NCBI GenBank assembly: GCA_050951325.1
Contig: JBMNIW010000012.1
Location: forward strand, 576,001-640,000
Source of the DNA: Clostridia bacterium
GTDB taxonomy: Bacteria > Bacillota > Clostridia > UBA1212 > DUPL01
Length of the DNA: 64,000 nucleotides
Direction: 5' to 3'
The translations under genes and the position numbers were made by a program. The notes below the pieces were generated by a model that saw nothing but the letters and a program-made list of their open reading frames with translations, was not told the origin of the DNA and searched no databases. Positions 15,466-29,783 of this stretch are shown here, in pieces (the stretch's first letter is position 1; each line of letters begins with the position of its first letter).

Positions 15466-17781
15466 ATGTTAAAACTTGTAAATGTTACAAAAAGTTATGT
15501 TACCGGCGATTTCAAGCAGGTTGCTTTAAATAATGTGAGTCTTGCATTCAGGGAAAATGAGTTTGTTGCAATTCTGGGTCCTTCAGGAGGCGGAAAGACG
15601 ACGCTATTAAACATCATAGGCGGCCTGGACAGATATGACAGTGGCGAGATGTATATAAACGGCAGACCCACATCCGACTTCAAGGGTGTGGAGTGGGACG
15701 CTTATAGGAACAACAGCATCGGCTTTGTTTTCCAGAATTACAACCTTATTTCCCATATATCTATCCTTGAAAATGTAGAGATGGGAATGACTCTTTCTGG
15801 AATGTCTGCCAGCGAACGAAGGGAAAGGGCCCTTCGATTGCTTGACAGGGTAGGTCTTAAAGACCATGTCAAAAAGAAACCCAACCAGCTGTCAGGCGGA
15901 CAGATGCAGAGAGTTGCGATAGCAAGAGCGCTCGCAAATGATCCTGATATTATTCTGGCGGATGAGCCAACTGGAGCTTTGGATAGCGAAACAGGAGTAC
16001 AAATACTTGACCTTATAAAAGAGATTGCGAAAAACAAACTTGTTATAATGGTTACACACAATCCCGAACTGGCAAACAAGTATGCCACCAGAATTGTCAA
16101 TTTGGTGGACGGACGGATTGTAAGCGACTCCAACCCGTATGAGGAGGAAGAACACAAGCAGTCAGGATACAAACTCAAAATGACTGCCATGAACTTTTTT
16201 ACTGCTTTGAAACTATCCTTTAACAACATAAAGACAAAGAAATTTAGAACAATACTTACCTCTTTCGCAGCAAGCATTGGAATCATAGGGATTGCACTCA
16301 TTCTCGCTCTTTCGAACGGGTTTCAGATAGAAATAGACAAGTTTGAGGAAAACACCATGTCTGGATTCCCCATAATCATAGGACAGCAGGCGACAACTGT
16401 TGATATTGCCGATATGGGTAAAAAGTTTGGAGAGGAGAACAGGAAGTACAAGGAGTTTACAGACAAAAAGGAAGTAATTCCTTTTGACAGGAGCGAAAGT
16501 GAATTAATTCATATGAACAATATTACAGAGGAATATATAGAGTATTTAAAGAGCATTGATCCGAATCTGCTTTTGGGAACCACATATACACGCATGACAT
16601 CTTTGAACTTATTGAAACTTGACAGAGACAATGTGGCAAAGATTGTATCGATGCAAGACCTGGATATGAGTGTGCTTCCAAAAAAGTTTGGTGAAGAAGG
16701 TTTTGTTGAAAAGAACTATGACATACTTTATGGAAAAATGCCAGAGAACAAAAACGAGTTATTGCTGGTTGTGGACAAATTCAATAGACTGGACAAAAGA
16801 GTGCTGGAAACGCTAGGTTTTTCAACTTATGAAAGTATAGCTTTTGAGGACATAATCGGTACCGAGTTAAGAGCCATTCCTAATAATGACTATTACGTGG
16901 AACGGGATGGATTCTTTACACTGGTTGGCAACCCTGCGGACATGACTGAAATATATAATAGGGAAACGGCAATACCTTTAAAAATTGTAGGAATCCTAAG
17001 GATAAAGAAAGACAAGATGCTGGATGTAATCCGTACAGGCGTGGCATATTCTGAAGAACTGATGGAATATATTCTGGAGGATTCGGAAAACAGCGACATT
17101 GCAAAAGCCCAAAGGGAGGCTGATTACAATGTGCTTACAGGCCAACCTTTTGATTTGACAACGGAAAAGGGAAAGGAAGACAAGGAAAATGTTCTCCGGG
17201 TAATTGGAGCAAACTCTGTTCCTTTAATGATAACAATCTTTCCTAGAGATTTTGATTCAAAGGATGACGTATTGGCGTTTTTGGATGCGTACAATGAAGG
17301 CAAAGACAGCAAGGACAGGATAATATATACAGACATGGCCGAGCAGATAACAAAGCTTACGAAAAAGATAATAGATTCAATATCCATTGTCCTTATAGCT
17401 TTTGCTTCAATTTCTTTGTTTGTTTCGTCTATAATGATTGGAATAATTACGTACATTTCCGTACTGGAAAGAACAAAAGAGATTGGAATTCTGAGGTCAT
17501 TAGGAGCAAGAAAATCGGATATTACCTTGGTATTTAATGCAGAAACCTTTATTATAGGGGTGTTTTCAGGATTAATTGGAATAGCCATAGCGTCTTTGCT
17601 GGTCATACCTACAAACATGATAATTGCAAATTATTCAAATCTTGAAAACGTAGCAAAGCTTTCGCCTTTGCATGCAATTATTCTGATTCTTGTAAGCTTG
17701 TTCTTTACAATTGTTGGAGGATTCATACCAAGCCTGATAGCTGCGAATAAGGACCCTGTGGAAGCACTGAGAACCGAATAA
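15466..17781 (+). CDS. MacB-like fused ABC ATPase/FtsX-permease
   Basis: GPSGGGKTT, LSGGQMQRVAIARAL, ADEPTGALD; C-terminal ERTKEIGILRSLGA and DPVEALRTE. Confidence 0.92.
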   Translation: MLKLVNVTKSYVTGDFKQVALNNVSLAFRENEFVAILGPSGGGKTTLLNIIGGLDRYDSGEMYINGRPTSDFKGVEWDAYRNNSIGFVFQNYNLISHISILENVEMGMTLSGMSASERRERALRLLDRVGLKDHVKKKPNQLSGGQMQRVAIARALANDPDIILADEPTGALDSETGVQILDLIKEIAKNKLVIMVTHNPELANKYATRIVNLVDGRIVSDSNPYEEEEHKQSGYKLKMTAMNFFTALKLSFNNIKTKKFRTILTSFAASIGIIGIALILALSNGFQIEIDKFEENTMSGFPIIIGQQATTVDIADMGKKFGEENRKYKEFTDKKEVIPFDRSESELIHMNNITEEYIEYLKSIDPNLLLGTTYTRMTSLNLLKLDRDNVAKIVSMQDLDMSVLPKKFGEEGFVEKNYDILYGKMPENKNELLLVVDKFNRLDKRVLETLGFSTYESIAFEDIIGTELRAIPNNDYYVERDGFFTLVGNPADMTEIYNRETAIPLKIVGILRIKKDKMLDVIRTGVAYSEELMEYILEDSENSDIAKAQREADYNVLTGQPFDLTTEKGKEDKENVLRVIGANSVPLMITIFPRDFDSKDDVLAFLDAYNEGKDSKDRIIYTDMAEQITKLTKKIIDSISIVLIAFASISLFVSSIMIGIITYISVLERTKEIGILRSLGARKSDITLVFNAETFIIGVFSGLIGIAIASLLVIPTNMIIANYSNLENVAKLSPLHAIILILVSLFFTIVGGFIPSLIAANKDPVEALRTE

Positions 17782-17823: not shown

Positions 17824-17905
17824 TCCATATTCAATTTTTTGTTGCGTCCTTGGCAACACTAGTATTATACTCAAAAAAAGACAAATTATTCATTAATTGA
17901 GAAAT

Positions 17906-18088
17906 TTATCTGTCTACCAGTGCCCTGCTCTTATAGCTTGCACACATGCTTTCATCAATATCTTCAGTTGCGCAGTTCATTTTAGGCGTAACCTTTATAG
18001 CTGACAAAGTACAGCTGTTTTCAAGCGTATCGTTAAAAGAGCAGCTTGCCACATCACAAGAAATAGACTGACATTTTTTATGGCTCAT
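17906..18088 (-). CDS. DUF1540-like small Cys-rich protein
   Basis: ISCDVASCSFN...CTLSAIKV...SMCASY; AAAGGTGG RBS. Confidence 0.75.
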   Translation of the reverse strand: MSHKKCQSISCDVASCSFNDTLENSCTLSAIKVTPKMNCATEDIDESMCASYKSRALVDR

Positions 18089-18188
18089 TTTAGTTCCACC
18101 TTTCAAGTCAACCTTTGTACGGAATTACCGTACAGTTGTATTTTGTCCTGAAAAACGTTATTCTTTCATGTAATTTTAGCCTGATATA

Positions 18189-18217
18189 TTGACAATGGTA
18201 ATCGGTTAGTATAAAAT
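18189..18217 (+). promoter_or_regulatory. Sigma-A promoter of the riboswitch-led operon
   Basis: TTGACA-17 bp-TAAAAT. Confidence 0.75.
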
Positions 18218-18263
18218 CTAAATGCTTTGATATTTTTTTAACAATATTAAAGTGAAAAAAATA

Positions 18264-18366
18264 CTGGTTCCGAGTGTTTTCTACCTAAAGCCAAAATGGC
18301 CATGGGGAAACACCGATAGGGTTGAAAGAGAAATTTTTCAGCCTTCCGGAGTTGAAAAGGAACAGG
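18264..18366 (+). ncRNA. Moco RNA motif riboswitch, P3-less tungsten-cofactor (Tuco/Wco) type
   Basis: TCCGAG; P2 GTGTTTTC/GGAAACAC with CCTAAAG..CATGG tetraloop-receptor-like motif; AGGG; P4 GGTTGAAAGA-GAAA-TTTTTCAGCC; CTTCCG...GAAAAGGA; only 4 nt where P3 would be; downstream genes are pterin-related. Confidence 0.88.
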
Positions 18367-18402
18367 AAAGAAATCACCCTTATGGGTGGTAATTTCTTTA
18401 TG

Positions 18403-18439
18403 TTCTCTTGTTCCGGACGGAATCAAGAGAATTTTTTTT
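18403..18439 (+). terminator. Riboswitch expression-platform terminator
   Basis: TTCTCTTGTTCC-ggac-GGAATCAAGAGAA followed by T8, about 30 nt before the first start codon. Confidence 0.85.
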
Positions 18440-18468
18440 GATAAAGAAATTAAAAGGAGAAGAATAAA

Positions 18469-19665
18469 ATGAAAAAGCATCTATTAATCTTGGCGATATT
18501 TGTATTAGTTTTAGCACTGGCTGCTGGGTGTGCAAATAATAACGGTCAGAACACCACACCAACACCTACTGATGCACCCCAGTCCTATGAGGATGACGAC
18601 TATATTCTTGAAATTGTAGGAATCGGGGATGAAACCATCAAAGTGACAAAAGGGCAAATCAGGGAACTTGCCGCAGGTGGCAAACTTGTTGAGTACGGCG
18701 AAGACCAGCCTGCATACGCATCCGACAAGACTGACGATGATGGCAACAAAATTCCACACACATTGAAAGGAGTATATTTCGACGATATACTTGAAGTTTA
18801 TGCAGATGACGCAAAAACTTCCGATTTTACAAGCATGTCTATTTATGCCGAAGACGGTTACGAGACAATTCTTTCAGCTGATGTCTTCAACGTAGAACAA
18901 GGCGGAGTTAAAATGATTGTTGCCTTTGAGTATGACGGCATTGAGCTTAATCCAAATGAGAAGAGCGGAGCTTTGAGAGTTGTTTTTCCTGACAAGCCGG
19001 CAAATACCTGGGCAAAACAGGTTTCCAAGATAGTTTTGGCAAGTGAGGAAGATGAGGAAACAGTTCCGGAAACTGAAAGCGTATACTTCTCAGAATCAAC
19101 CGGAGACAAATATGACGGTAGTTATGAGGTAGACGGCACTACATATTATGGAACAAGCTTCAAAAAAATATTTGACGACGGAATATTGAAGAGCGGTGAT
19201 AAGGCCCAGATGTTCGTATATTCGTGGGATGGAACCGAGTATACAAGCTTGAAGACAAAAGAGTATTACGAGGATGCGTTCTTGGTTTATGCATCAAAGG
19301 ATGCTGACAGTGACGAGTTTGCTCAAGAGAAGGACGCACCGGTATTCAATGGGGCAAACATTTTAAAAGGCATGAAGGTAAAACACACCATGTATGTGAC
19401 TGTTGAAAACACTTCTTTTGCAGTACTTGACAAAGTTTTTGAAAAGCTTGATTCCAAAGGCAAAGGCAGTATTCTTGTTAGTGAGCTGCTTGATGAAATA
19501 AATATGAAAGAAGCGTCAATCTATACCATAACCGGGGTTGACGGCACTGAAAAACAGGCAAAGAAAGAAGATTTAAAGGATATAAGGATTGAGTCAACAG
19601 ATGAAGGATACGTTGTTTCAGTTGATGGCAGTGAGTTTGTAATATTGAGCATACAGGCGAAATGA
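18469..19665 (+). CDS. Lipoprotein with repeated molybdopterin-binding (Oxidored_molyb/SUOX-fold) domains lacking the Mo-ligand Cys
   Basis: Lipobox LAAGC, PT linker; LKGVYFDDIL..YAEDGY..IVAFEYDG..GALRVVFP..TWAKQVSKI; degenerate repeats follow. Confidence 0.75.
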   Translation: MKKHLLILAIFVLVLALAAGCANNNGQNTTPTPTDAPQSYEDDDYILEIVGIGDETIKVTKGQIRELAAGGKLVEYGEDQPAYASDKTDDDGNKIPHTLKGVYFDDILEVYADDAKTSDFTSMSIYAEDGYETILSADVFNVEQGGVKMIVAFEYDGIELNPNEKSGALRVVFPDKPANTWAKQVSKIVLASEEDEETVPETESVYFSESTGDKYDGSYEVDGTTYYGTSFKKIFDDGILKSGDKAQMFVYSWDGTEYTSLKTKEYYEDAFLVYASKDADSDEFAQEKDAPVFNGANILKGMKVKHTMYVTVENTSFAVLDKVFEKLDSKGKGSILVSELLDEINMKEASIYTITGVDGTEKQAKKEDLKDIRIESTDEGYVVSVDGSEFVILSIQAK

Positions 19666-20228
19666 GGAAGGTTATTAAATCATATTCTGTTTTGGATCTG
19701 GTATTAATAGCGATGCTAGCAGCCCTTGCTACAGGCTTCAAGACTGTTGCAAACACACTGGTCAAGTTAATAACAGGTCCTTTGGGAATCCCAGGAGGGG
19801 CTTTGGCAGGCGGATTTTATATGATGTGGCTTGCCATTGGGCATTCGGTAGTTCGTAAATTTGGGGTATCTTTCATGATATCCCTTGTCCAGGCTCTCGT
19901 ACTATTTACAACCAGCGCACCAGGCAGCCACGGCATCTGGACTTTCATAACGTATTTGATTCCCGGACTTTGCGTTGACATTGTGTTTCTCTTTGCAAGA
20001 AAAAACAATGCCAATGTTCTGCATTTCATGATTGCCGTGATGATGGCAAATGTACTGGGCACACTAGGGAGCTTTTTGCTATGGTTCAGGTTATCCTGGT
20101 TGTGGCTTGCGTTTAGCCTGACTGCAGCGGCTTTATCCGGAGCAATTGGAGGGCTTGTGGCATATTCTGTTGATAAGGGAATTAGGAGAATTGGTTTAAT
20201 TTTCAAAGAGGATGGGGCAGATCAATGA
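19662..20228 (+). CDS. ECF transporter substrate-specific S component
   Basis: 188 aa, about 6 TM, N-terminal DLVLIAMLAAL (AxxxA), PG..VD motif; same operon as EcfA/A'/T. Confidence 0.82.
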   Translation: MRKVIKSYSVLDLVLIAMLAALATGFKTVANTLVKLITGPLGIPGGALAGGFYMMWLAIGHSVVRKFGVSFMISLVQALVLFTTSAPGSHGIWTFITYLIPGLCVDIVFLFARKNNANVLHFMIAVMMANVLGTLGSFLLWFRLSWLWLAFSLTAAALSGAIGGLVAYSVDKGIRRIGLIFKEDGADQ

Positions 20229-21670
20229 AAAGAGCACTATTGATACTGACAGTTGTCTTGTTGGTGATTTTTGCAGGATGCACGAACAAGGAAAGTGAAC
20301 CAGGCAAATACATAACCGTAAACGGGGATATAGAAGGCGTCTCTGTAGAAGTGAACTTGAGTGATATTTCAAAAGAAGAGATAGCAATAAAGGATACACT
20401 TTACAAAGGGGTGCGTTTGTCAAAGGTTCTTGAGAAGGTTTCACTACTGGCACCTGTTGATAAGAGCTATGTAATGATAACAGCCATAGACGGAGTGTCT
20501 GCACTAATTGATGCGGAGACTGCCAACTTGTGTCATGTTGTCGAAGTAGAAGGAGTTTTGAACATAAAGGCTCCGGAACATCCGAGGGTTGTTGGTATCA
20601 AGCATGTTCTTGAGATTACAATAGTTGCCCATGAGGATGTGGAAATTTCTGATGAGAATTCTCTAAAAATTGTGGATCAAGAGGGTGACAGACGTATAAG
20701 TTTTGGAAACTGCAAGCTCCTTATGTTTGAGAAATCAGGTGAAAGTAGACAGAACGGAAATCTCGCTGTGAAGTATGTAAAGAAAGCGCCATTAAAGGCG
20801 GAAGAATTCATCGGCGATGATTTCGTACTTTACTTCGACAACTATGACATGCTGAAAGTGGATAGGGATTATGCAGGTGTTTTTGTTTGGGAAAATGGCA
20901 GAATATATTATGAAACGGACGAGAGGTACGATAGTCCTGTTACAGGTATTGTGACAGGCGTCGACACCGTTATATTCGATGCCTTTGACATGATGAAGAT
21001 ATTATTGGATAAGAATGAAATGGTTATGTTTATCCTGCCTGACGGGTTGTCTTACGAGCAGGTGGAATATTACAAGGATAACCTTACAATATTATCAGGC
21101 AATTACAAAAAAGCAGCCAGCGTGAACCCAGCCATATCAAATGTGGCTTTGGCAGCAATAATTACCGGACAATCACCTTTTGCAACAGGCATAACAAAGA
21201 GGGAAGTAAAAGCTCCTAACGTAAAGGACATTTTTGAATACGTTGTCAGTAAAGGGAAAACGGCATCATATATTGAAGGGAATTCAGTATTGGTTGTAAC
21301 CTCGGAAAAGCCAAAACTGAATGTAGCCAACTCGGAAGGATATACTGATAAAGGCGTATTTGAAACAGCCATGTATGAACTGGGCAAAAATCCTGATTTT
21401 TTATTCATACATTTCCACGGCATTGATGATGTAAATCACGAGTACTCTCCTTTGTCAGAGGAAGCCAAGCAGAAGATATATGAAATAGAAGGATATATTA
21501 AAGAGCTGGTTAAAAACTTTTATGGGCATGTGATAATTGTGCCTGACCATGGAGCAGTGACTATAGAAGACACGGATGGGACAAAAAGAGGAAAACACAG
21601 CTTGTTCAAGTATGGAGACATGTATGTGCCCTTCTACTATTTTGAAAGGGGTAGTTTGATTGAAGAATAG
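20225..21670 (+). CDS. Lipoprotein: degenerate SUOX-fold domain plus alkaline phosphatase/NPP-superfamily domain
   Basis: Lipobox IFAGC; YKGVRLSKVL..ITAIDG; ILPDGL, PAISNVALAAIITG, HFHGIDDVNH, VPDHG, GKH. Confidence 0.8.
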   Translation: MKRALLILTVVLLVIFAGCTNKESEPGKYITVNGDIEGVSVEVNLSDISKEEIAIKDTLYKGVRLSKVLEKVSLLAPVDKSYVMITAIDGVSALIDAETANLCHVVEVEGVLNIKAPEHPRVVGIKHVLEITIVAHEDVEISDENSLKIVDQEGDRRISFGNCKLLMFEKSGESRQNGNLAVKYVKKAPLKAEEFIGDDFVLYFDNYDMLKVDRDYAGVFVWENGRIYYETDERYDSPVTGIVTGVDTVIFDAFDMMKILLDKNEMVMFILPDGLSYEQVEYYKDNLTILSGNYKKAASVNPAISNVALAAIITGQSPFATGITKREVKAPNVKDIFEYVVSKGKTASYIEGNSVLVVTSEKPKLNVANSEGYTDKGVFETAMYELGKNPDFLFIHFHGIDDVNHEYSPLSEEAKQKIYEIEGYIKELVKNFYGHVIIVPDHGAVTIEDTDGTKRGKHSLFKYGDMYVPFYYFERGSLIEE

Positions 21671-22208
21671 GAATGTGCTTATTGCACTGGTTATATTGGT
21701 TGTACTTTCCATTCTGTTTGGTGTTATGCTGTTTGTCTTTATGAATGAAAACAAGAAAAACGTGGAGCAGTATGAAAAAAGGGAAATTGCAATTACCATC
21801 AATGGAGAGAGGGAAGTATATACCTTTGAAGAATTGATGGAGATAAGCCAGCCGGTTGATTTTAAGGCAATATACAAGCCTAGCAACAAGGAACCCATAG
21901 AAAAGACCTATACCGGAATAGAATTGAGGGACCTGCTTGAGAAGTTGGGGGCAGACTTGGAGAACATGAAACAGATTACATTTACTGCAAAAGACGGTTT
22001 TCAGAAAGTGTACCGGGCAGAGGATGTAAGGAAGGAAACCAATGTATTTATAACGCATTTGGTGAATGGAAAGCCTTTCAACGAAGGCATTGATGTGATG
22101 GCATATGAAAAGGAACAGGAAGATGGCGGACCTTTTGTGGTAATAAAGGCGGAAGACAAAGTAAGCCAGAACAGAGTAAAAATGCTTGTAGAGATTGTGG
22201 TGGAATGA
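21660..22208 (+). CDS. Membrane-anchored molybdopterin-binding (SUOX-fold) domain protein, no Cys
   Basis: N-terminal TM; YTFEEL..YTGIELRDLL..TAKDGF..VNGKPF..GGPFVVI..VKMLVEI. Confidence 0.78.
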   Translation: MKNRNVLIALVILVVLSILFGVMLFVFMNENKKNVEQYEKREIAITINGEREVYTFEELMEISQPVDFKAIYKPSNKEPIEKTYTGIELRDLLEKLGADLENMKQITFTAKDGFQKVYRAEDVRKETNVFITHLVNGKPFNEGIDVMAYEKEQEDGGPFVVIKAEDKVSQNRVKMLVEIVVE

Positions 22209-22870
22209 AACTTACAGTAGAAAATCTAACAGTAATGTTTAAAAACAGAATTATACTTGATAATGTATCATTACAAGTTGAAGCAGGAGAAATTGTTGCA
22301 GTAGTCGGACCAAATGGCAGTGGAAAATCCACACTTTGTACTGCAATTGCAGGTGTGTCTCAAAATTATGGACTGAGTACTGTTGGCAGAATAAGGATAG
22401 GTGACAAAGAGTTGTCCCAACTCAGTATTCATGAAAGATGCGCCTTGCTTGGTGTCATATTCCAGAATTCTGATAACTTTCTTTTTTCTCAATATGTTGA
22501 GGACGAGCTTCGGTTTGCTCCTGAAAATCTATGTGTTCCCAGGGCGGAAATTGAAACAAGAATAAAAGAAGCTTTGGATTTTACCGGTATTAGCTATTTA
22601 AGACATAGAAAAATTCAGGAGCTTTCGGGAGGGGAGAAGAAGCTGGTTTCAATTGCGTCTGTTTTAACCATGATGAGCAAATTCCTAATAGCGGATGAAA
22701 TAACTTCCGGAGTAGACGAGGACAGGAAGGTTCAGATACGGGAGATTCTAAGAAAACTAGCCAAAGACAATATTGGAATACTAATGATATCCCACAACAG
22801 AAACGATATTGAAATTGCTGACAGAATATATGTATTAAAGGATGGCAAATTGCATGATAGAACTGATTGA
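22205..22870 (+). CDS. ECF transporter ATPase (EcfA)
   Basis: GPNGSGKST, IFQN, VEDELRFAPENL, LSGGEKK, ADE, SH. Confidence 0.88.
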   Translation: MKLTVENLTVMFKNRIILDNVSLQVEAGEIVAVVGPNGSGKSTLCTAIAGVSQNYGLSTVGRIRIGDKELSQLSIHERCALLGVIFQNSDNFLFSQYVEDELRFAPENLCVPRAEIETRIKEALDFTGISYLRHRKIQELSGGEKKLVSIASVLTMMSKFLIADEITSGVDEDRKVQIREILRKLAKDNIGILMISHNRNDIEIADRIYVLKDGKLHDRTD

Positions 22871-24236: not shown

Positions 24237-24977
24237 ATGAAAGTATTAACGGTAACGGGGCTTAGCGGAAGCGGAAAGACCACCGTAATAGAGAATTTGA
24301 TAAAAGAACTAAAAAGAAGAGGTTATTCCATAGGAAGTGTAAAGGAGATTCATTATGAGGCGTTTGCCATTGATACTCCTGGAAAGAACACCTACAGACA
24401 CAGACAAGCAGGAGCAGAAATTGTAACAGCAAGAGCTCACAATGAAACAGACATATTGTATCCCGGACACCTGCCGATTTACGAAGTGCTCTCCCACTAT
24501 AATCAGGACTATGTTTTGCTTGAAGGAGTAAGGGACTGTGTGGCTCCGGAGATTGCTGTTTGCAAGGAAGATGCTGAGCCTGAAATAACTCCTCTTACGT
24601 TTGCAGTAAGTGGAAGGTTTGCAAACACCGGTGTTACGGAGTACAAGGGTCTTCCTGTAATATCAGCAGTTGATGACATAGGAAGACTGGCAGACCTTGT
24701 CGAGGAAAAGGTTCCGAGTTTAATGCATGATATAGAGTATGAATGCTGTGGTGAATGCGGTACGGATTGTAGAGGATTTCTTGCAAGGCTTCTGAAGGGA
24801 GAGGTTGTCAGTTCCGATTGCGAACTGAGTCAAAGAGAAGTCAAGTTGATTATCGACGGTCAGGATATTGTAATGGTGCCTTTTGTTCAAAGGATACTGA
24901 AAAACGCAGTGGTGGGAGTTGTATCGGAACTTAATGGGTACAAGGAAGGAAAGAAGATAGTAATAGAGATAGAATGA
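24237..24977 (+). CDS. mobB: MobB-like P-loop protein with C-terminal FeS domain
   Basis: VTGLSGSGKTTVIENLIKEL..VKEIH..IDTPGKNTYRHRQAGA; CGECGTDC..C. Confidence 0.82.
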   Translation: MKVLTVTGLSGSGKTTVIENLIKELKRRGYSIGSVKEIHYEAFAIDTPGKNTYRHRQAGAEIVTARAHNETDILYPGHLPIYEVLSHYNQDYVLLEGVRDCVAPEIAVCKEDAEPEITPLTFAVSGRFANTGVTEYKGLPVISAVDDIGRLADLVEEKVPSLMHDIEYECCGECGTDCRGFLARLLKGEVVSSDCELSQREVKLIIDGQDIVMVPFVQRILKNAVVGVVSELNGYKEGKKIVIEIE

Positions 24978-25627
24978 TGGGCGAAATTATTAAGCGGTTC
25001 GAGAGCAAGAAAAACAGTGTTTTTCTAGTAAGTGTGGAAGGAATCATGCAAGTTGTAAAGGTGCATGAATCAGAGGAAAAAGCCTACTTTGAATCAGAGG
25101 TTTTAAAAAGGCTTTACTTGTATGCTAACGTACCAAAGGTTATTAAGGTAGAATCAAACAGGATCTACATGGAATACATAGAGGGAAAACTTGCTGTTGA
25201 CTACTTTCTCGAATGCGATACTGAAGAAGTAAAAGAACTGGCAAGACAGATGCTATCCTTTTGCCGGGTTTACTCAGACCAATTTGATAACTTCCGTTTG
25301 TCGGATACAAACTTCCGGAATTTTATCGTGGTTGAAATGGACGAAGAAATTGAATTGTACGGTGTTGATTTTGAGGAAAGGGAAGAAGGCACACTGATAA
25401 AAAGTGCAGCTGAACTGTGTGCTTTCTCGTTTTTGTATGATGTTGATGCTTATAAGAAGAAAACCTTTTACAATACAATTGCATCAAATTGCTCCGAGCA
25501 GGAAGTTGACTTTTTAAACGACTATATTTTTAATAGCTTGAATAAGCTTATTAAAAGACGCAGATTGAATTTAAATGTTAAAAGTGTCTTTGAAGAATTG
25601 GTAATTGGCAACGGGCATATGGTATAA
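24974..25627 (+). CDS. Small protein-kinase-fold phosphotransferase (Bud32/RIO/Kdo-kinase-like)
   Basis: VVK, helix-C Glu (FESE), VPKV, YMEYIEG, DTNFRN catalytic loop, VDFE. Confidence 0.72.
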   Translation: MMGEIIKRFESKKNSVFLVSVEGIMQVVKVHESEEKAYFESEVLKRLYLYANVPKVIKVESNRIYMEYIEGKLAVDYFLECDTEEVKELARQMLSFCRVYSDQFDNFRLSDTNFRNFIVVEMDEEIELYGVDFEEREEGTLIKSAAELCAFSFLYDVDAYKKKTFYNTIASNCSEQEVDFLNDYIFNSLNKLIKRRRLNLNVKSVFEELVIGNGHMV

Positions 25628-25673: not shown

Positions 25674-26408
25674 ATGAAGGTAACACTCAAGGACAAGGTT
25701 GTAGTTGTAACTGGTGCGGGAGGCGGCATCGGCAGCGCCATCTGTGAGGGGGTGGCTAAAGAGGGTGCGAGGATTGCACTTTGCGGCGGCAACAACCTGG
25801 AAAAGCTGAATGCCTCAGCGGACATTATTAGGGAATACGGTGTTGACCCATATGTTCTTCCAGGTGATCTTGCCAACATGGATTTTCTGACAACTTGCAT
25901 TGACAAAATAGCACAGCATTTTGGCAGAATTGACATACTTATTAACAATGCCGGAATTGCACACAATGCTCCATTTGAAGAAACAAAAATGGAGGATTTT
26001 GACAGGATAATGAATATAAACGTAAAGGTGCCTTTTGTTTTATGCCAGAAGGTGCTTCCATATTTGCGTGAATCGAATCATGCTACAATTATCAACATTG
26101 CATCTGTTGTTGCCCACAAAGGGTATGTAAATCAGGCAATATACACTGCATCCAAGCATGCCCTGCACGGGTTTACAAAATCGCTTGCAAACGAGGTCTA
26201 TGCTGAAAATATTAGAGTTCATACTGTTTGTCCGGGTGGAGTATTTACCGATATGGTTAAGGTAACACGTCCGGATCTGACTGGTGAGGATATGATTATG
26301 CCTGAAGAGATTGCGGATATTGTCCTATTCCTCCTTACAAGAAGAGGCAATGCTGTCATTGACGATATCTGCGTGCGGAGAGCTGCAAAAAATCCATTTG
26401 ATGTATGA
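25674..26408 (+). CDS. SDR family NAD(P)-dependent oxidoreductase
   Basis: TGAGGGIG, NNAG, YTASK. Confidence 0.92.
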   Translation: MKVTLKDKVVVVTGAGGGIGSAICEGVAKEGARIALCGGNNLEKLNASADIIREYGVDPYVLPGDLANMDFLTTCIDKIAQHFGRIDILINNAGIAHNAPFEETKMEDFDRIMNINVKVPFVLCQKVLPYLRESNHATIINIASVVAHKGYVNQAIYTASKHALHGFTKSLANEVYAENIRVHTVCPGGVFTDMVKVTRPDLTGEDMIMPEEIADIVLFLLTRRGNAVIDDICVRRAAKNPFDV

Positions 26409-26452: not shown

Positions 26453-26704
26453 TTATCCCGCAATTATGACAGGAAATATTTTTATCCTGTCGCCATCTTT
26501 AATCGGATCGTTCCAGTTGTGTTTGACACTGTTTATGGTTGCAAATCCAACTTCTTCATCAGGAATGTTCAATAACGAAACAAGTTCATCCAATAGGATT
26601 TCATCTCTTCCGTCAATTGAGAGTTCAAAACTGTTCTCGTCGTCCTTGAACCTTTCCTTGTTGTACTTTTTCAATGTGTGAAACAGCTCAACAGTTATAA
26701 CCAT
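26453..26704 (-). CDS. MoaD/ThiS family ubiquitin-like sulfur carrier
   Basis: Beta-grasp pattern ending IKDGDRIKIFPVIIAG; downstream of the AOR-family gene. Confidence 0.8.
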   Translation of the reverse strand: MVITVELFHTLKKYNKERFKDDENSFELSIDGRDEILLDELVSLLNIPDEEVGFATINSVKHNWNDPIKDGDRIKIFPVIIAG

Positions 26705-26705
26705 C

Positions 26706-28484
26706 TTAGACAAACTCCTTTATTGACTCATCTTCTTCAGCCAAAATTTCCTCGCAACGCCTTGCATATTCTTCTGCAATCTCGTTTGCCATATACTGAT
26801 CAAGTTTGCCTGTTGTTGTTGGTGTTTCAAAAAATCTCTTGGGAAGCTTTACATCCTGTATTGCAAAGCCCAAGGATTTCTTAATCTCTAGCTTTGTTCT
26901 CAGGATACGCTTTGCAATATCTGTCAGTGTTTCGTCAGTATAGTCAAGCCCAACGCATTTAAGGACCATCCTGATATTTTCCCTGCTGTATACTTTACGT
27001 GCAAACAGGCATATGATTAAAGAATTCAGCAGGCAGCGCTCGATTTCCTCGCTAATAAGGTAGTCTACGAGTTTTTCCTTGTCAAGCTCCTTGTCCCTGT
27101 TGGACTGGTCATATGAATAGCCTGCATTACAGAGGTGAGAATGTCTTGCGCCTACCAATGCGCCTACAAGAGAGCCGTAGCCCGTGTGGTAACCAGGCAT
27201 TTCGTTACCAGCAATCTGCATGCCAAAATCATAACCGCCATACTTCTTGGCTACGTGTTTTACTCCCTTGCCCATATCGGTATAGAGCTGATTGACACCT
27301 TGTGCAATGTAGTCGACAGCTTTAGCAAGGTTTACATAATCGCCCATCTTCAAAGGCAGAATGGTTTGCTCTTCTGTAATGATGCCCCTTTCAAGAGCTT
27401 CACAAGCCCATCCCAGAACAACACCGCAGGACATGGCGTCAAGCCCGTTTCTTTCAACAGCATCGATAACGTATAAAACTCCATCCGTATTATCAACACC
27501 AAGGAATGAGCCAAGTGCATAAATTAGTTCGTAGTCGTATCCGACCGAAATCGCTTCGTACTCATAGCCGTGGTCAAATTCACGTCTGAACTGTCCTATG
27601 TGTATGCATCCAACAGGACATCCTGTGCATGCCATTTTTCTAATCAGGTTGTTCTTCGCAAAGGCCTCTCCTGAAATATTTTCAGCATGCTCAAAAGTTC
27701 CAGAGGTAAGGTTTCGGGTCGGAAGACCTCCCATGGCGCTCAATGGCTCTACGTTTATGGGAGTGCCGGCATCATGATATTTTGCCATTACTTCTGTTTC
27801 GGTTACCTGTTTGTACAGTTTGGAGTAGGTCTTGAAATAGTCCTTGAAATTGGGTATTGGCATGGGAAGATCGCCTGTAACCTGCATTGCTTTCATAAGC
27901 TTGCTGCCAAAAACGGCACCCAGGCCCAGTCTTCCAAAATGTCTGTATGTGTCAACGCAAACACTTGCATAGGAGCACAGATTTTCACCTGCAGGACCTA
28001 TGCGGATGATGGAACGCTTTCCGCTTCCATGCTCCCTGTTTCTGATATATGAGCCTACCTTGTCGGAGTCCATTCCCCAAAAAGCGCGTGCGTCCTTTAT
28101 TTCCACTCCTGTTTGTGTAACTGTAACATAACAAGGTTTTTGAGATTTACCTGTAATTACTATGGCGTCATAGCCTGCATGCAGCATTGTGAAGGCGAGT
28201 CTGCCACCTGCATAGGACTCACCCAGTTCTCCTGTTAGAGGAGAAACAAACATGGCTACAGTCTTGGTTATGACTGGAAATACAGATGAAGCTGCGCCAA
28301 TTGCAAAAATTATAGGTTGATCCTCATGAAGGGGAGGCAAATCAGGATTCATGTTTTCCTGTAGGAGTTTTGAGGCAACTCCCACACCTCCCAAATAGGC
28401 TCTAAGATCCTTTCTCTTGTCAACCCTTATGCGGCCTGTTGAGAGATTTATATTCAAAACTCTTATGTAATCTTTATAAAACAT
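26706..28484 (-). CDS. Tungsten-containing aldehyde:ferredoxin oxidoreductase family (WOR/AOR) large subunit
   Basis: YLGGVG, SPLTG..ESYAGG, GYDAIVITGK, IGPAGEN, GRLGLGAVFGSK, LPTRN, CTGCPVGC; GGAGG RBS before ATG 28484. Confidence 0.93.
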   Translation of the reverse strand: MFYKDYIRVLNINLSTGRIRVDKRKDLRAYLGGVGVASKLLQENMNPDLPPLHEDQPIIFAIGAASSVFPVITKTVAMFVSPLTGELGESYAGGRLAFTMLHAGYDAIVITGKSQKPCYVTVTQTGVEIKDARAFWGMDSDKVGSYIRNREHGSGKRSIIRIGPAGENLCSYASVCVDTYRHFGRLGLGAVFGSKLMKAMQVTGDLPMPIPNFKDYFKTYSKLYKQVTETEVMAKYHDAGTPINVEPLSAMGGLPTRNLTSGTFEHAENISGEAFAKNNLIRKMACTGCPVGCIHIGQFRREFDHGYEYEAISVGYDYELIYALGSFLGVDNTDGVLYVIDAVERNGLDAMSCGVVLGWACEALERGIITEEQTILPLKMGDYVNLAKAVDYIAQGVNQLYTDMGKGVKHVAKKYGGYDFGMQIAGNEMPGYHTGYGSLVGALVGARHSHLCNAGYSYDQSNRDKELDKEKLVDYLISEEIERCLLNSLIICLFARKVYSRENIRMVLKCVGLDYTDETLTDIAKRILRTKLEIKKSLGFAIQDVKLPKRFFETPTTTGKLDQYMANEIAEEYARRCEEILAEEDESIKEFV

Positions 28485-28893
28485 CGTCGACTTCCTCCAT
28501 TGTAAGACATTGATGTGGACAGAATCTTGTGCAGGATCCACAGTGTTTGCAGATTATTGGCAAATTCTCTTCCTCGTCAAAAAACACCGCGCCAACTATG
28601 CAAGCATCAACACACTTTTTGCATCCGGTACACATATCCTTGTTAAGCAGGACACCGCCTCCTTTACGTTCAACCAACGCACCTGTAGGACAAGCTTCAA
28701 GACATGCTCTGTCATCCTTGCATGCGTGGCATACAGTTGCATAGAATCCGTGTTTCAAGCCTCCGTTTGTCTTTATTTTTATTGCACTTTTTGAAATGGA
28801 GAAGTTGTGTTTGTTGACAGCTGCACATACGGTCATGCATGAAAAGCAGCCAATGCACTTCCTCATTCCGTCTGTTCTAAGCGCTCTTGCCAC
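28474..28893 (-). CDS. 4Fe-4S dicluster ferredoxin-like small subunit of the WOR
   Basis: CIGCFSCMTVC, CHAC..CLEACP, CTGCKKCVDAC, CKHCGSCTRFCP; overlaps the large-subunit start. Confidence 0.92.
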   Translation of the reverse strand: MARALRTDGMRKCIGCFSCMTVCAAVNKHNFSISKSAIKIKTNGGLKHGFYATVCHACKDDRACLEACPTGALVERKGGGVLLNKDMCTGCKKCVDACIVGAVFFDEEENLPIICKHCGSCTRFCPHQCLTMEEVDDVL

Positions 28894-28983: not shown

Positions 28984-29054
28984 TTTCTACATGTCCAATT
29001 TTATTTGTATTATTGAGGGAAAATTAGTATACTAATAATATAGGGGTGAACAGA

Positions 29055-29783
29055 ATGAGTACACACAAATCAAGCAAAAGATATGAAAGGCAGATGAATT
29101 TACAGAGTCTTCCCGACAACTTTCAGGACTTATTGCGTAATAGCAAGGTGTTGATTCTGGGAGCAGGAGGCTTGGGCTGTGCAGCCTCCATTTATGTCGC
29201 TGCAGCTGGTGTTGGAAAAATAACGGTGGTGGACAGGGACACTATAAACGAGCCCGACTTGAACAGACAGATACTCTATACACCGGAGGACATAGGAAAA
29301 AAGAAAGCCAAAACATGTGTGGAGAGGCTACATAAATTCAACCCGGATATAGAATGTGTGGGATTGGCAAAGGAGATAAATGACAAACTACTAAAGGACC
29401 TTGTTCCGAAGCATGATATTGTCATGGATTTATGCGACAACTATTCCACGAGAATAAAAATAGCTGAAGCATGTCAAAAATATGGTAGGCAATGTGTGGT
29501 TGCAGCTGTAAATGGACTTGAAGGATTTGTGATGGTTACAGACAAAGGTTCTGCATGTTTTGGTTGCCTTTATCCTGACGAAGTAAAGCTTTCAGTCAGC
29601 CCGCCGAGGGTTTTGGGAGCAGCAGCAGGAAATGTGGGAGTTCTAGCTGCCATGCGATGCATACTGACTTTATGTAATGTTGGAAAGGTCGGTGTCATGT
29701 ATTGTCTTGATTTTATAAACATGATTATTGACGAGATAGAGATAACGAAAAGCACCAATTGTCATGTTTGCTGCAAGGCTTGA
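29055..29783 (+). CDS. MoeB/ThiF family adenylyltransferase
   Basis: RYERQ, GAGGLG, DRD..DLNRQ, CDN, CFGC and CHVC zinc motifs. Confidence 0.9.
   Translation: MSTHKSSKRYERQMNLQSLPDNFQDLLRNSKVLILGAGGLGCAASIYVAAAGVGKITVVDRDTINEPDLNRQILYTPEDIGKKKAKTCVERLHKFNPDIECVGLAKEINDKLLKDLVPKHDIVMDLCDNYSTRIKIAEACQKYGRQCVVAAVNGLEGFVMVTDKGSACFGCLYPDEVKLSVSPPRVLGAAAGNVGVLAAMRCILTLCNVGKVGVMYCLDFINMIIDEIEITKSTNCHVCCKA

Follow-up and report, generated by a model that had tools for sequence, protein, structure and literature searches.

The window analysed here, a 64,000-nucleotide stretch of the Clostridia bacterium assembly GCA_050951325.1 (contig JBMNIW010000012.1), contains a nine-gene operon that encodes a complete energy-coupling factor (ECF) importer together with three predicted surface proteins carrying cysteine-less domains of the sulfite oxidase (SUOX) type. 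We consider it probable that the region is a riboswitch-controlled ECF salvage system for a finished, metal-loaded pyranopterin cofactor (that of tungsten, possibly also the molybdenum cofactor, Moco), in which the SUOX-like proteins would capture and relay the ligand and one of them, the product of open reading frame (ORF) 3, would trim nucleotide or phosphate groups from it. This reading is built on folds, motifs, gene order, a regulatory element and the phyletic pattern, from which we infer the ligand and every biochemical step.

Operon, riboswitch and SUOX-like surface proteins

The source genome assembly is 96% complete and comprises 12 contigs; whole-genome statements below refer to this assembly, and the genes of the window were scored with Pfam, TIGRFAM and NF profiles. 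The operon runs in the order ORF1, S (ORF2), ORF3, ORF4, A, A', T, MobB/Fe-S protein and small kinase, with the SUOX-like ORFs embedded among the importer genes and a riboswitch and terminator at its head. The features, in window coordinates, are as follows.

18189..18217, +, promoter-like site: TTGACA, 17-nt spacer, TAAAAT; 11 of 12 consensus positions
18256..18378, +, Moco/tungsten cofactor (Tuco) riboswitch aptamer of the P3-less type: RF01055 66.7 bits (gathering cut-off 36), E 7e-14
18403..18439, +, intrinsic terminator (expression platform): hairpin 18403-18431, then eight U at 18432-18439
18469..19665, +, ORF1, 398-amino-acid (aa) lipoprotein: residues 40-193 a Cys-less SUOX fold, then two more beta-rich domains
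19662..20228, +, ORF2, ECF S component of the YkoE type: PF09819 58.2 bits (cut-off 25.2)
20225..21670, +, ORF3, 481-aa lipoprotein: SUOX-like domain at about 28-137, middle domain, nucleotide pyrophosphatase/phosphodiesterase (NPP)/alkaline-phosphatase core at 262-481; PF01663 42.7 bits
21660..22208, +, ORF4, 182 aa, TTG start: a single membrane anchor plus a SUOX-like domain at residues 34-182
22205..22870, +, ECF ATPase A: TIGR04520 177.7 bits (below the equivalog cut-off of 315), PF00005 101.8 bits
22842..23507, +, ECF ATPase A': TIGR04520 145 bits (below cut-off), PF00005 97 bits
23485..24234, +, ECF T component: PF02361 (CbiQ) 92.9 bits
24237..24977, +, MobB GTPase with a Cys-rich C-terminal domain: TIGR00176 (mobB) 83.6 bits (cut-off 76.2)
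24974..25627, +, small RIO/Bud32/APH-type kinase with intact catalytic residues

The S and T components and the two A genes, encoded together, amount to a complete ECF importer with a dedicated energising module. The aptamer lies about 90 nt 5′ of ORF1 and is the single copy of RF01055 in the whole genome; in the alignment its P3 positions are deleted. Absence of the P3 stem is linked in passages of PMC2408646 with use of the tungsten cofactor, as a proposed riboswitch class. Folding of the terminator region (18366-18452) gave −33.1 kcal/mol (z −5.4), with none of 200 shuffled sequences equally stable, and a consensus terminator scan picked up just the small hairpin at 18373-18390. The MobB/Fe-S product also scored 134.9 bits against the NF011064 MobB/FeS models, which is below their cut-off, and the cysteines of its tail are at residues 170, 171, 174, 178 and 195.

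An earlier note, made from the sequence alone, had proposed that ORF1, ORF3 and ORF4 share the SUOX molybdopterin fold without its catalytic cysteine and are non-catalytic pterin-binding or relay proteins exported empty. The sequence pattern on which it relied, slightly relaxed here to [YL].G[VI].[LF]..[LIV]L, then 10-45 residues, then A.DG, occurs in exactly three of the 6328 six-frame ORFs of at least 80 aa in the whole genome, namely those starting at 18469 (ORF1), 20225 (ORF3) and 21660 (ORF4). The pattern was derived from these same three ORFs, and the whole-genome scan is thus a measure of specificity rather than an independent discovery. Against the Oxidored_molyb profile PF00174 (gathering cut-off 24), ORF1 scored 26.7 bits, ORF4 fell just under with 23.3 bits and ORF3 reached 13.7 bits (E 0.065), while relatives in other genomes scored 33-57 bits. 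Profile–profile comparison joined both larger proteins to the ORF4 family, with ORF1 residues 40-198 matching at a probability of 94.6% (E 6.5e-8) and ORF3 residues 26-137 at 92.5% (E 4.9e-7). The ORF4 family itself has 194 representatives at E ≤ 1e-3 in a library of 1.84 billion proteins.

The fold of ORF1 was assigned by structure, and that of ORF4 and of ORF3 domain 1 by profile comparison. An AlphaFold (AF2) model of ORF1 with a predicted local distance difference test score (pLDDT) of 85 was compared with all representative solved chains. In VIA-align, ten SUOX-fold chains stand apart on residues 40-193 (Z 14.3-9.7), the next fold having a Z of 4.7. The best of these is the pterin-binding protein PruR from Vibrio cholerae (Z 14.3, root-mean-square deviation 2.8, 129 of 138 residues aligned; Z 13.5 for PruR with neopterin), followed closely by the molybdoenzymes SorT (14.1), SoxC (13.6), SorA (13.3), nitrate reductase (12.2), sulfite oxidase (11.1) and YedY (9.7). 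Foldseek agrees, returning PruR and sulfite dehydrogenases at E values of about 1e-6. These matches bear out the Moco-binding SUOX fold for residues 40-193. The earlier note had counted about two further, degenerate copies in ORF1 beside the clear one. The clear copy stands; the other two fared poorly, residues 312-398 matching ORF3 domain 1 at a probability of 59.5% and residues 199-318 matching ORF4 at 9.5%. Some SUOX-fold alignments extend to residues 250-261, and the structure search, which covered mainly residues 40-200, barely reached the residues of these copies.

Against solved structures, the sequence profiles yielded little. The ORF1 family profile found no PDB sequence at E ≤ 1 and the S-component profile none at E ≤ 0.1; the ORF4 profile aligned weakly with the core motif of SorA (E 0.9), and hhalign gave no match between the ORF1 family and Escherichia coli MsrP.

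The only cysteine of ORF1 is C21 of the lipobox and ORF4 has none at all, as the earlier note had read from the sequence; ORF3 has C19 (lipobox), C103 and C163. In none of the three domain alignments does a cysteine column exceed 44% of rows, in agreement with the absence of a catalytic cysteine. One site of note is the position of ORF1 A82, which is cysteine in 10 of 25 relatives and lies three residues before an invariant S85-D86-K87-x-D89 loop. Residues invariant in the ORF1 family include S85, D86, K87, D89, Y131, R170 and W181.

The N-termini are of the Sec/lipoprotein type (MKKHLL...AAGC in ORF1, MKRALL...FAGC in ORF3, a single membrane anchor in ORF4), with no RR pair anywhere, again as noted before. 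TatC gave no match in the genome. As there is no twin-arginine translocation (Tat) signal, no TatC match and no match to the Moco pathway in the genome, the three proteins must leave the cell empty, as had been proposed. The earlier interpretation is thus partly supported: it holds for the fold, the missing cysteine and the empty export, but its non-catalytic part may not extend to FMN-linked relatives, where a redox role is possible (below). A "binding or relay" role fits the place of the genes in a riboswitch-controlled ECF importer operon and the predicted ORF4–S interface. The riboswitch, transporter, NPP domain, kinase, MobB, a neighbouring aldehyde:ferredoxin oxidoreductase (AOR) and the missing biosynthesis genes together turn this loose relay idea into a candidate salvage pathway.

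Two known groups of proteins share the fold. The SUOX molybdoenzymes (sulfite oxidase and dehydrogenase, MsrP/YedY, assimilatory nitrate reductase) match ORF1 with Z scores of 14.1-9.7, but ORF1, ORF3 and ORF4 differ from them in having no conserved cysteine ligand, in Sec/lipoprotein rather than Tat export, in lacking a dimerisation or heme domain, and in a host genome that gave no Moco-pathway match. The closest known relative is the periplasmic protein PruR (Agrobacterium, Vibrio, Klebsiella; PDB 7kou, 7kom, 7kp2, 7rkb), which is likewise a small, secreted, Cys-less SUOX fold. PruR is described in portions of PMC11194511 as a secreted non-catalytic pterin binder that controls a cyclic di-GMP (c-di-GMP) enzyme, so Cys-less SUOX-fold pterin binders are already known. 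According to the same portions, PruR binds small non-Moco pterins and has a truncated hairpin with a P-W motif, whereas ORF1 has the invariant S-D-K-x-D loop in the hairpin region. The invariant D129-G-Y131 and W181 of ORF1 may correspond to the Tyr/Trp pterin sandwich of PruR. The genetic setting differs too: the operon partner of PruR-type proteins is of the DcpA type (a cyclase/phosphodiesterase) or a sensor kinase, whereas the operon here contains ECF genes, MobB and a small kinase under a Moco/Tuco riboswitch, in hosts that are Clostridia-type anaerobes, and no sequence-level link between the two was found.

The C-terminal part of ORF3 is predicted to be an intact nucleotide-pyrophosphatase domain with the core fold, a bimetal site and a Ser/Thr nucleophile. 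In a structure search with whole ORF3, which covered residues 262-481, the model (pLDDT 92.9, compact core) matched Xanthomonas NPP with a Z of 20.0 (root-mean-square deviation 3.0, 209 residues aligned), and the top Foldseek matches were NPP and ENPP1/3. D273, H396, H398, D401, D402, H405, D441, H442 and H458, which we take from known motifs to form the NPP metal sites, do not vary in any of the 36 rows, and position 305, the presumed nucleophile, is serine in 35 rows and threonine in one. The kinase family profile matched Archaeoglobus fulgidus Rio2 (E 3.8e-6); among 12 family members, three match the Pfam family RIO1 and two APH, and residues K29, D111, N113, N116 and D132 are invariant. 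The presence of NPP domain and kinase suggests, by analogy, a "trim outside, re-phosphorylate inside" logic as in other cofactor salvage routes.

Complex prediction supports binding of ORF4 to the S component. The pair scored 0.72 in three runs, against 0.01 for the best of three controls; this mark was attained by 116 of 157 solved complexes and by 2 of 215 mismatched pairs, counts that are approximate here because our own alignments were supplied. At least 82% of contacts were common to the runs, with a partner pLDDT of at least 85. In the predicted interface, the ORF4 anchor packs on the helices of S, and the D112-G loop and residue 170 face the invariant loop 31-44 of S.

Cofactor genes and distribution of the cassette

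Downstream of the operon lie three genes that bear on its function:

26453..26713, −, ThiS/MoaD-like small protein 3′ of AOR ("WorX"): PF02597 17.9 and PF14451 20.8 bits, both below cut-offs
26706..28541, −, AOR, a tungsto-/molybdo-pterin enzyme: PF01314 214 bits, PF02730 206 bits
29046..29783, +, MoeB/ThiF-family adenylyltransferase, divergent from AOR: PF00899 193 bits

AOR is the single match of its kind in the genome; it and the ThiS-like gene converge on the cassette operon, with the MoeB/ThiF-like gene beyond. In a tblastn search with E. coli MoeB, the gene at 29046..29783 was the only genomic match (E 3e-33).

Profiles for MoaC, the MoaA C-domain, MoaE and MoeA_N found no match in the genome, and tblastn with E. 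coli MoaB, MoaC, MoaD, MoaE, MobA, ModA and MsrP found nothing there; no enzymes that use bis-molybdopterin guanine dinucleotide were found in it either. The sole MoCF_biosynth match is CinA and was rejected as a Moco gene, and SBP_bac_11 and PBP_like_2 matches were rejected as ModA or TupA, being PotD, PstS and a LysR regulator. As judged from its genome, the organism would thus have a pterin enzyme, a cofactor-sensing riboswitch and MobB, with no recognisable pterin synthesis, metal uptake or metal insertion. Among 45 species genomes of its own order, none has MoaC, and one each has AOR and the cassette, in both cases the source genome itself.

A pattern scan, with one genome taken per species, gave 19 loci with a close ORF1 homologue in 19 other genomes, mostly metagenome-assembled genomes (MAGs) of Christensenellales or other Clostridia and one Actinomycetota MAG. 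Among the 14 loci with sequence beyond ORF1, 12 retain the set ORF1, S, ORF3, ORF4, A, A', T and MobB, and the kinase is there in 11. The S component is 40-58% identical across 13 loci, and at 12 loci an additional lipoprotein is encoded in which the domain recurs one to three times. At 13 of the 19 loci a P3-less aptamer stands 5′ of the homologue of ORF1; two of the other six offer less than 130 nt of upstream sequence. In these 19 genomes, whose completeness was not given, AOR was found in 18, MoeA in two, and MoaC and a TupA-like protein in one each. TupA, MoaC and MoeA are thus missing jointly from the close subfamily, with AOR and cassette retained. Salvage routes usually leave such a mark, in which de novo synthesis has gone entirely, metal uptake included, and importer and user enzyme remain.

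G016 is the sole close-cassette genome with MoaC; no other of them has TupA, and it shares the presence of MoeA with just one. Its contig C24 (locus L045) carries, in one block, genes for a TupA-like protein, AOR, a ThiS-like and a ThiF-like protein, MoaB, two MoeA proteins, MoaA and MoaC, and this block may show what the other close-cassette genomes lost.

We also examined a class-level sample of 300 genomes, each at least 90% complete, with an S-component threshold of E ≤ 7e-49. Besides the source genome, 38 have AOR, of which 34 have MoaC and 19 the ORF4 family. The S component was found in 15 genomes, all among the 38 with AOR; two much weaker matches were in genomes lacking AOR. A TupA-like tungstate-binding protein is present in 13 of the 15, mostly beside moa genes, so the cassette is not simply their tungstate transporter.

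Twelve distant cassette regions were fetched. All contain ECF genes, most contain MobB, ORF3-like, ORF4-like and kinase genes, and seven of the nine scanned have riboswitches 5′ of the operon. These cassettes add FMN_bind proteins, an FMN_bind–Oxidored_molyb fusion, an NapH-like Fe-S protein and ApbE, as well as DUF364/DUF4213 ("heavy-metal chelation"), FmdE, an FecCD-type ABC transporter and a nearby MOT1-type gene. In locus L070 (1564-8646; also L066 and L071), from genomes with Moco biosynthesis, genes for FecCD/ABC/Peripla_BP_2, DUF364/DUF4213 and FmdE-like proteins lie between those for SUOX-like lipoproteins. The FMN_bind–Oxidored_molyb fusion is encoded at L069:3984-5561, and two giant proteins anchored in the S-layer, 1515 and 2434 aa long and with several SUOX-like domains, are encoded at L069:6395-10942 and L068:9780-17084; the fusion and S-layer genes adjoin NapH-like and ApbE genes. 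The gene content of L069 and L068 points to possible flavin-fed surface chemistry at the SUOX-like domain in some relatives. A flavinylation survey (PMC8238504) has no SUOX-like domain in its main text.

A proposed salvage route and its alternatives

In the route that we propose, the three proteins would be exported unfolded and empty via Sec, to reside on the surface as two lipoproteins and one membrane-anchored protein. Their Cys-less SUOX-type domains would capture pterin cofactor released by other anaerobes, and the NPP domain of ORF3 would cut dinucleotide forms or remove phosphate. From ORF4, docked on the S component, the ligand would pass into the ECF importer. In the cytoplasm, the cofactor would be finished by the small kinase (through re-phosphorylation) and the MobB/Fe-S protein and delivered to the neighbouring AOR, and with plentiful cofactor the P3-less riboswitch would terminate transcription. 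Of the readings considered for the source genome, only uptake of a metal-loaded pterin leaves no essential part missing.

The architecture resembles that of ECF importers for vitamins that are under riboswitch control and have their own A, A' and T genes, to which it is also joined by its S family, PF09819. YkoEDC is a thiamine-precursor importer, and CbiMNQO works with the accessory protein CbiN. The likeness extends to an OFF riboswitch sensing the end product, retention in auxotrophs and a small membrane-anchored accessory protein predicted to sit on S; in contrast to such importers, the cassette would have a new class of substrate, several surface capture proteins, a surface phosphoesterase, and MobB and a kinase in the operon. 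Haemophilus salvages NAD by means of a surface pyrophosphatase/nucleotidase, an importer and a cytoplasmic kinase, and FAD and thiamine pyrophosphate are salvaged in similar fashion. Its logic (strip outside, import the core, re-phosphorylate inside) matches the ORF3 NPP domain and the kinase by analogy, with no homology.

Several points weigh against import of a finished cofactor. Moco in its free form is very labile. The idea of a cassette confined to organisms without biosynthesis had to be rejected: all 15 S-component genomes of the class sample have MoaC, and the cassette is therefore tied to AOR rather than to loss of biosynthesis. The expectation that AOR without MoaC implies the cassette also failed in that sample, in all four cases (0/4); both the ORF4 family and the S component are missing from G120, G200, G273 and G157, although the AOR match of G157 is a 28-bit fragment containing a stop. 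This outcome speaks against a simple alternation of biosynthesis and cassette. The unstated completeness of the 19 close-cassette genomes counts on the same side. So does retention, in MoaC-less genomes, of a ThiS-like/ThiF-like pair beside AOR, which could mean that sulfur is transferred and hence that the imported pterin is unfinished. Tungstate is bound well by sites of the alkaline-phosphatase type, and the NPP domain taken alone is compatible with an oxyanion role. Finally, the genes added in distant cassettes give a hint of extracellular redox or metal chemistry.

The alternative that survives best, although we regard it as unlikely, is that an unfinished pterin is imported (cyclic pyranopterin monophosphate (cPMP), metal-free molybdopterin (MPT), or a breakdown product that has been dephosphorylated or oxidised) and completed with sulfur from the ThiS-like/ThiF-like pair and phosphate from the kinase. 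The conserved kinase and extracellular phosphoesterase would suit such a scheme of stripping outside and rebuilding inside. A ThiF-like gene lies 3′ of AOR in 10 of 18 AOR loci of cassette genomes, and in the seven loci inspected (L036, L039, L040, L045, L046, L050 and L052) AOR is followed by an 82-87-aa ThiS-family protein ending in GG. The order AOR, ThiS-like, short ThiF-like persists in genomes lacking MoaA, MoaC, MoaE and MoeA, and this trio, kept in MoaC-less cassette genomes, speaks for an unfinished ligand. Both genes are also in the window, where the ThiS-like protein ends in AG, not GG, and the ThiF-like gene is divergent. On the other hand, MoaE and MoeA were not found in the source genome, and MoeA is present in 2 and TupA in 1 of the 19 relatives; with no MoaE, MoeA or TupA there is no known way to sulfurate cPMP or to import and insert the metal. 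The pair may also carry little information on salvage: in sections of a 2026 survey (PMC13328260), ThiS-like WorX genes adjoin Class I WORs, nearly all of the organisms concerned have TupABC, and WorX genes accompany AORs in organisms with full biosynthesis too, so they are not specific to salvage.

A new ECF-type system for uptake or mobilisation of tungsten or molybdenum, with the SUOX-like domains and the NPP site as oxyanion or thiometallate binders, seems to us less probable again. It could draw on the strict linkage of the cassette to AOR-bearing genomes, on the absence of a ModA or TupA match from the source genome, and on the DUF364/DUF4213, FmdE, FMN_bind and MOT1-type genes nearby in relatives. 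The riboswitch class is compatible with it as well, since P3-less RNAs precede tupABC in other bacteria (excerpts of PMC2408646 and PMC11725836); in Eubacterium limosum they are reported in the latter to precede WOR1, tupABC, two "iron" ABC transporters and focA. Given the FecCD/ABC/Peripla_BP_2 genes in the riboswitch operons of L070, L066 and L071, those "iron" transporters behind tungsten-cofactor riboswitches may serve the same handling of cofactor or tungsten and not the uptake of iron. What tells against metal uptake is that a cell has no use for the metal alone if it lacks MPT synthesis and MoeA, for which neither the source genome nor 17-18 of the 19 close relatives gave a match. Moreover, 13 of the 15 cassette genomes with biosynthesis already have a TupA-like protein, and TupA is lost along with MoaC while the cassette stays. 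The S component, too, is of the YkoE type, and the kinase and MobB would be left without a role. YkoE-type S components are known for organic heterocycles.

We give little credence to a third possibility, that the surface proteins are extracellular redox enzymes which bind a pterin or metal centre without cysteine (for example through Ser or Asp of the S-D-K-x-D loop), are loaded outside and are fed by surface flavoproteins. The FMN_bind–Oxidored_molyb fusion, FMN_bind, NapH-like Fe-S and ApbE genes of distant cassettes would suit this, as would the FMN_bind gene that adjoins the cassette in one close relative (L040) and the cysteine near the loop in 10 of 25 ORF1 relatives. However, the operon in the window lacks any extracellular FMN_bind, heme or Fe-S partner, there is no conserved cysteine, and the genes stand within an importer operon with cytoplasmic cofactor-handling proteins. 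That the proteins are PruR-like sensors of excreted small pterins, signalling to a membrane partner, is hardly credible: PruR does rank with the best structural matches (Z 14.3 and 13.5) and is also secreted and Cys-less (as passages of PMC11194511 have it), but a DcpA-type cyclase/phosphodiesterase or kinase partner is missing, a transporter takes that place, control is by a Moco/Tuco riboswitch, and the ORF1 family profile, finding no PDB sequence, does not reach PruR.

If the favoured reading, import of a finished metal-loaded cofactor, is taken more broadly, the tungsten/molybdenum pyranopterin cofactor would be traded like a vitamin in anaerobic communities and the cassette would be its first transporter in any organism; a digester bacterium and many Christensenellales-type genomes would have discarded MoaA, MoaC, MoaE, MoeA and TupA and would run a tungsten enzyme on captured cofactor. 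We rate this wider claim as evenly balanced between true and false. The literature covered, which did not extend to supplements and most subscription journals, yielded no bacterial Moco or tungsten-cofactor importer; in that partial coverage, Caenorhabditis elegans, a eukaryote that takes finished dietary Moco from bacteria, is the only known case of Moco uptake, with no transporter known for it. The cassette would here provide a bacterial counterpart, the first testable candidate transporter for a tungsten/molybdenum pterin cofactor.

A defined bacterial gene set would make movement of the molybdenum/tungsten cofactor between cells testable through binding proteins, an importer for a cofactor-less host and a riboswitch reporter. 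If true, the proposal would explain how a tungsten enzyme can persist in genomes from which biosynthesis has vanished entirely, and the cofactor would join the cross-fed micronutrients of digesters and guts. It would also explain a case that, in the passages of PMC2408646 (2008) drawn on here, is left as an unexplained exception, in which two P3-less RNAs stand before "putative sulphite oxidase" genes in Syntrophomonas wolfei. Proteins that hold a labile cofactor outside the cell could, in addition, serve as stabilising tools.

Flanking genes and expression

Just 5′ of the operon, on the same strand, lies a gene for a 771-aa fused ABC ATPase-permease (15466-17781) with its own terminator. A small Cys-rich ORF of about 60 aa (approximately 17906-18088, −), spotted by eye, falls between this gene and the operon promoter. 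On the other side, a short-chain dehydrogenase (SDR) gene (25674-26408) separates the cassette from the AOR pair; tblastn of its product against related loci gave weak opposite-strand SDR matches in L014 and L023, at another position.

Digesters, bioreactors, landfill and sludge are the sources of 14 DNA runs in which the window stretch was detected; six metatranscriptome runs contain it as well. In four RNA runs, from biogas-fermenter and digester metatranscriptomes, contigs cover the operon and AOR, such contigs being a record of presence only. One RNA contig spans the riboswitch into ORF4. RNA contigs of three studies begin at 18246, 18247 and 18264, and a further contig start lies at 18277, about 30 nt past the −10 box, with 17879-18245 uncovered; this agreement hints weakly at a transcription start and at read-through.

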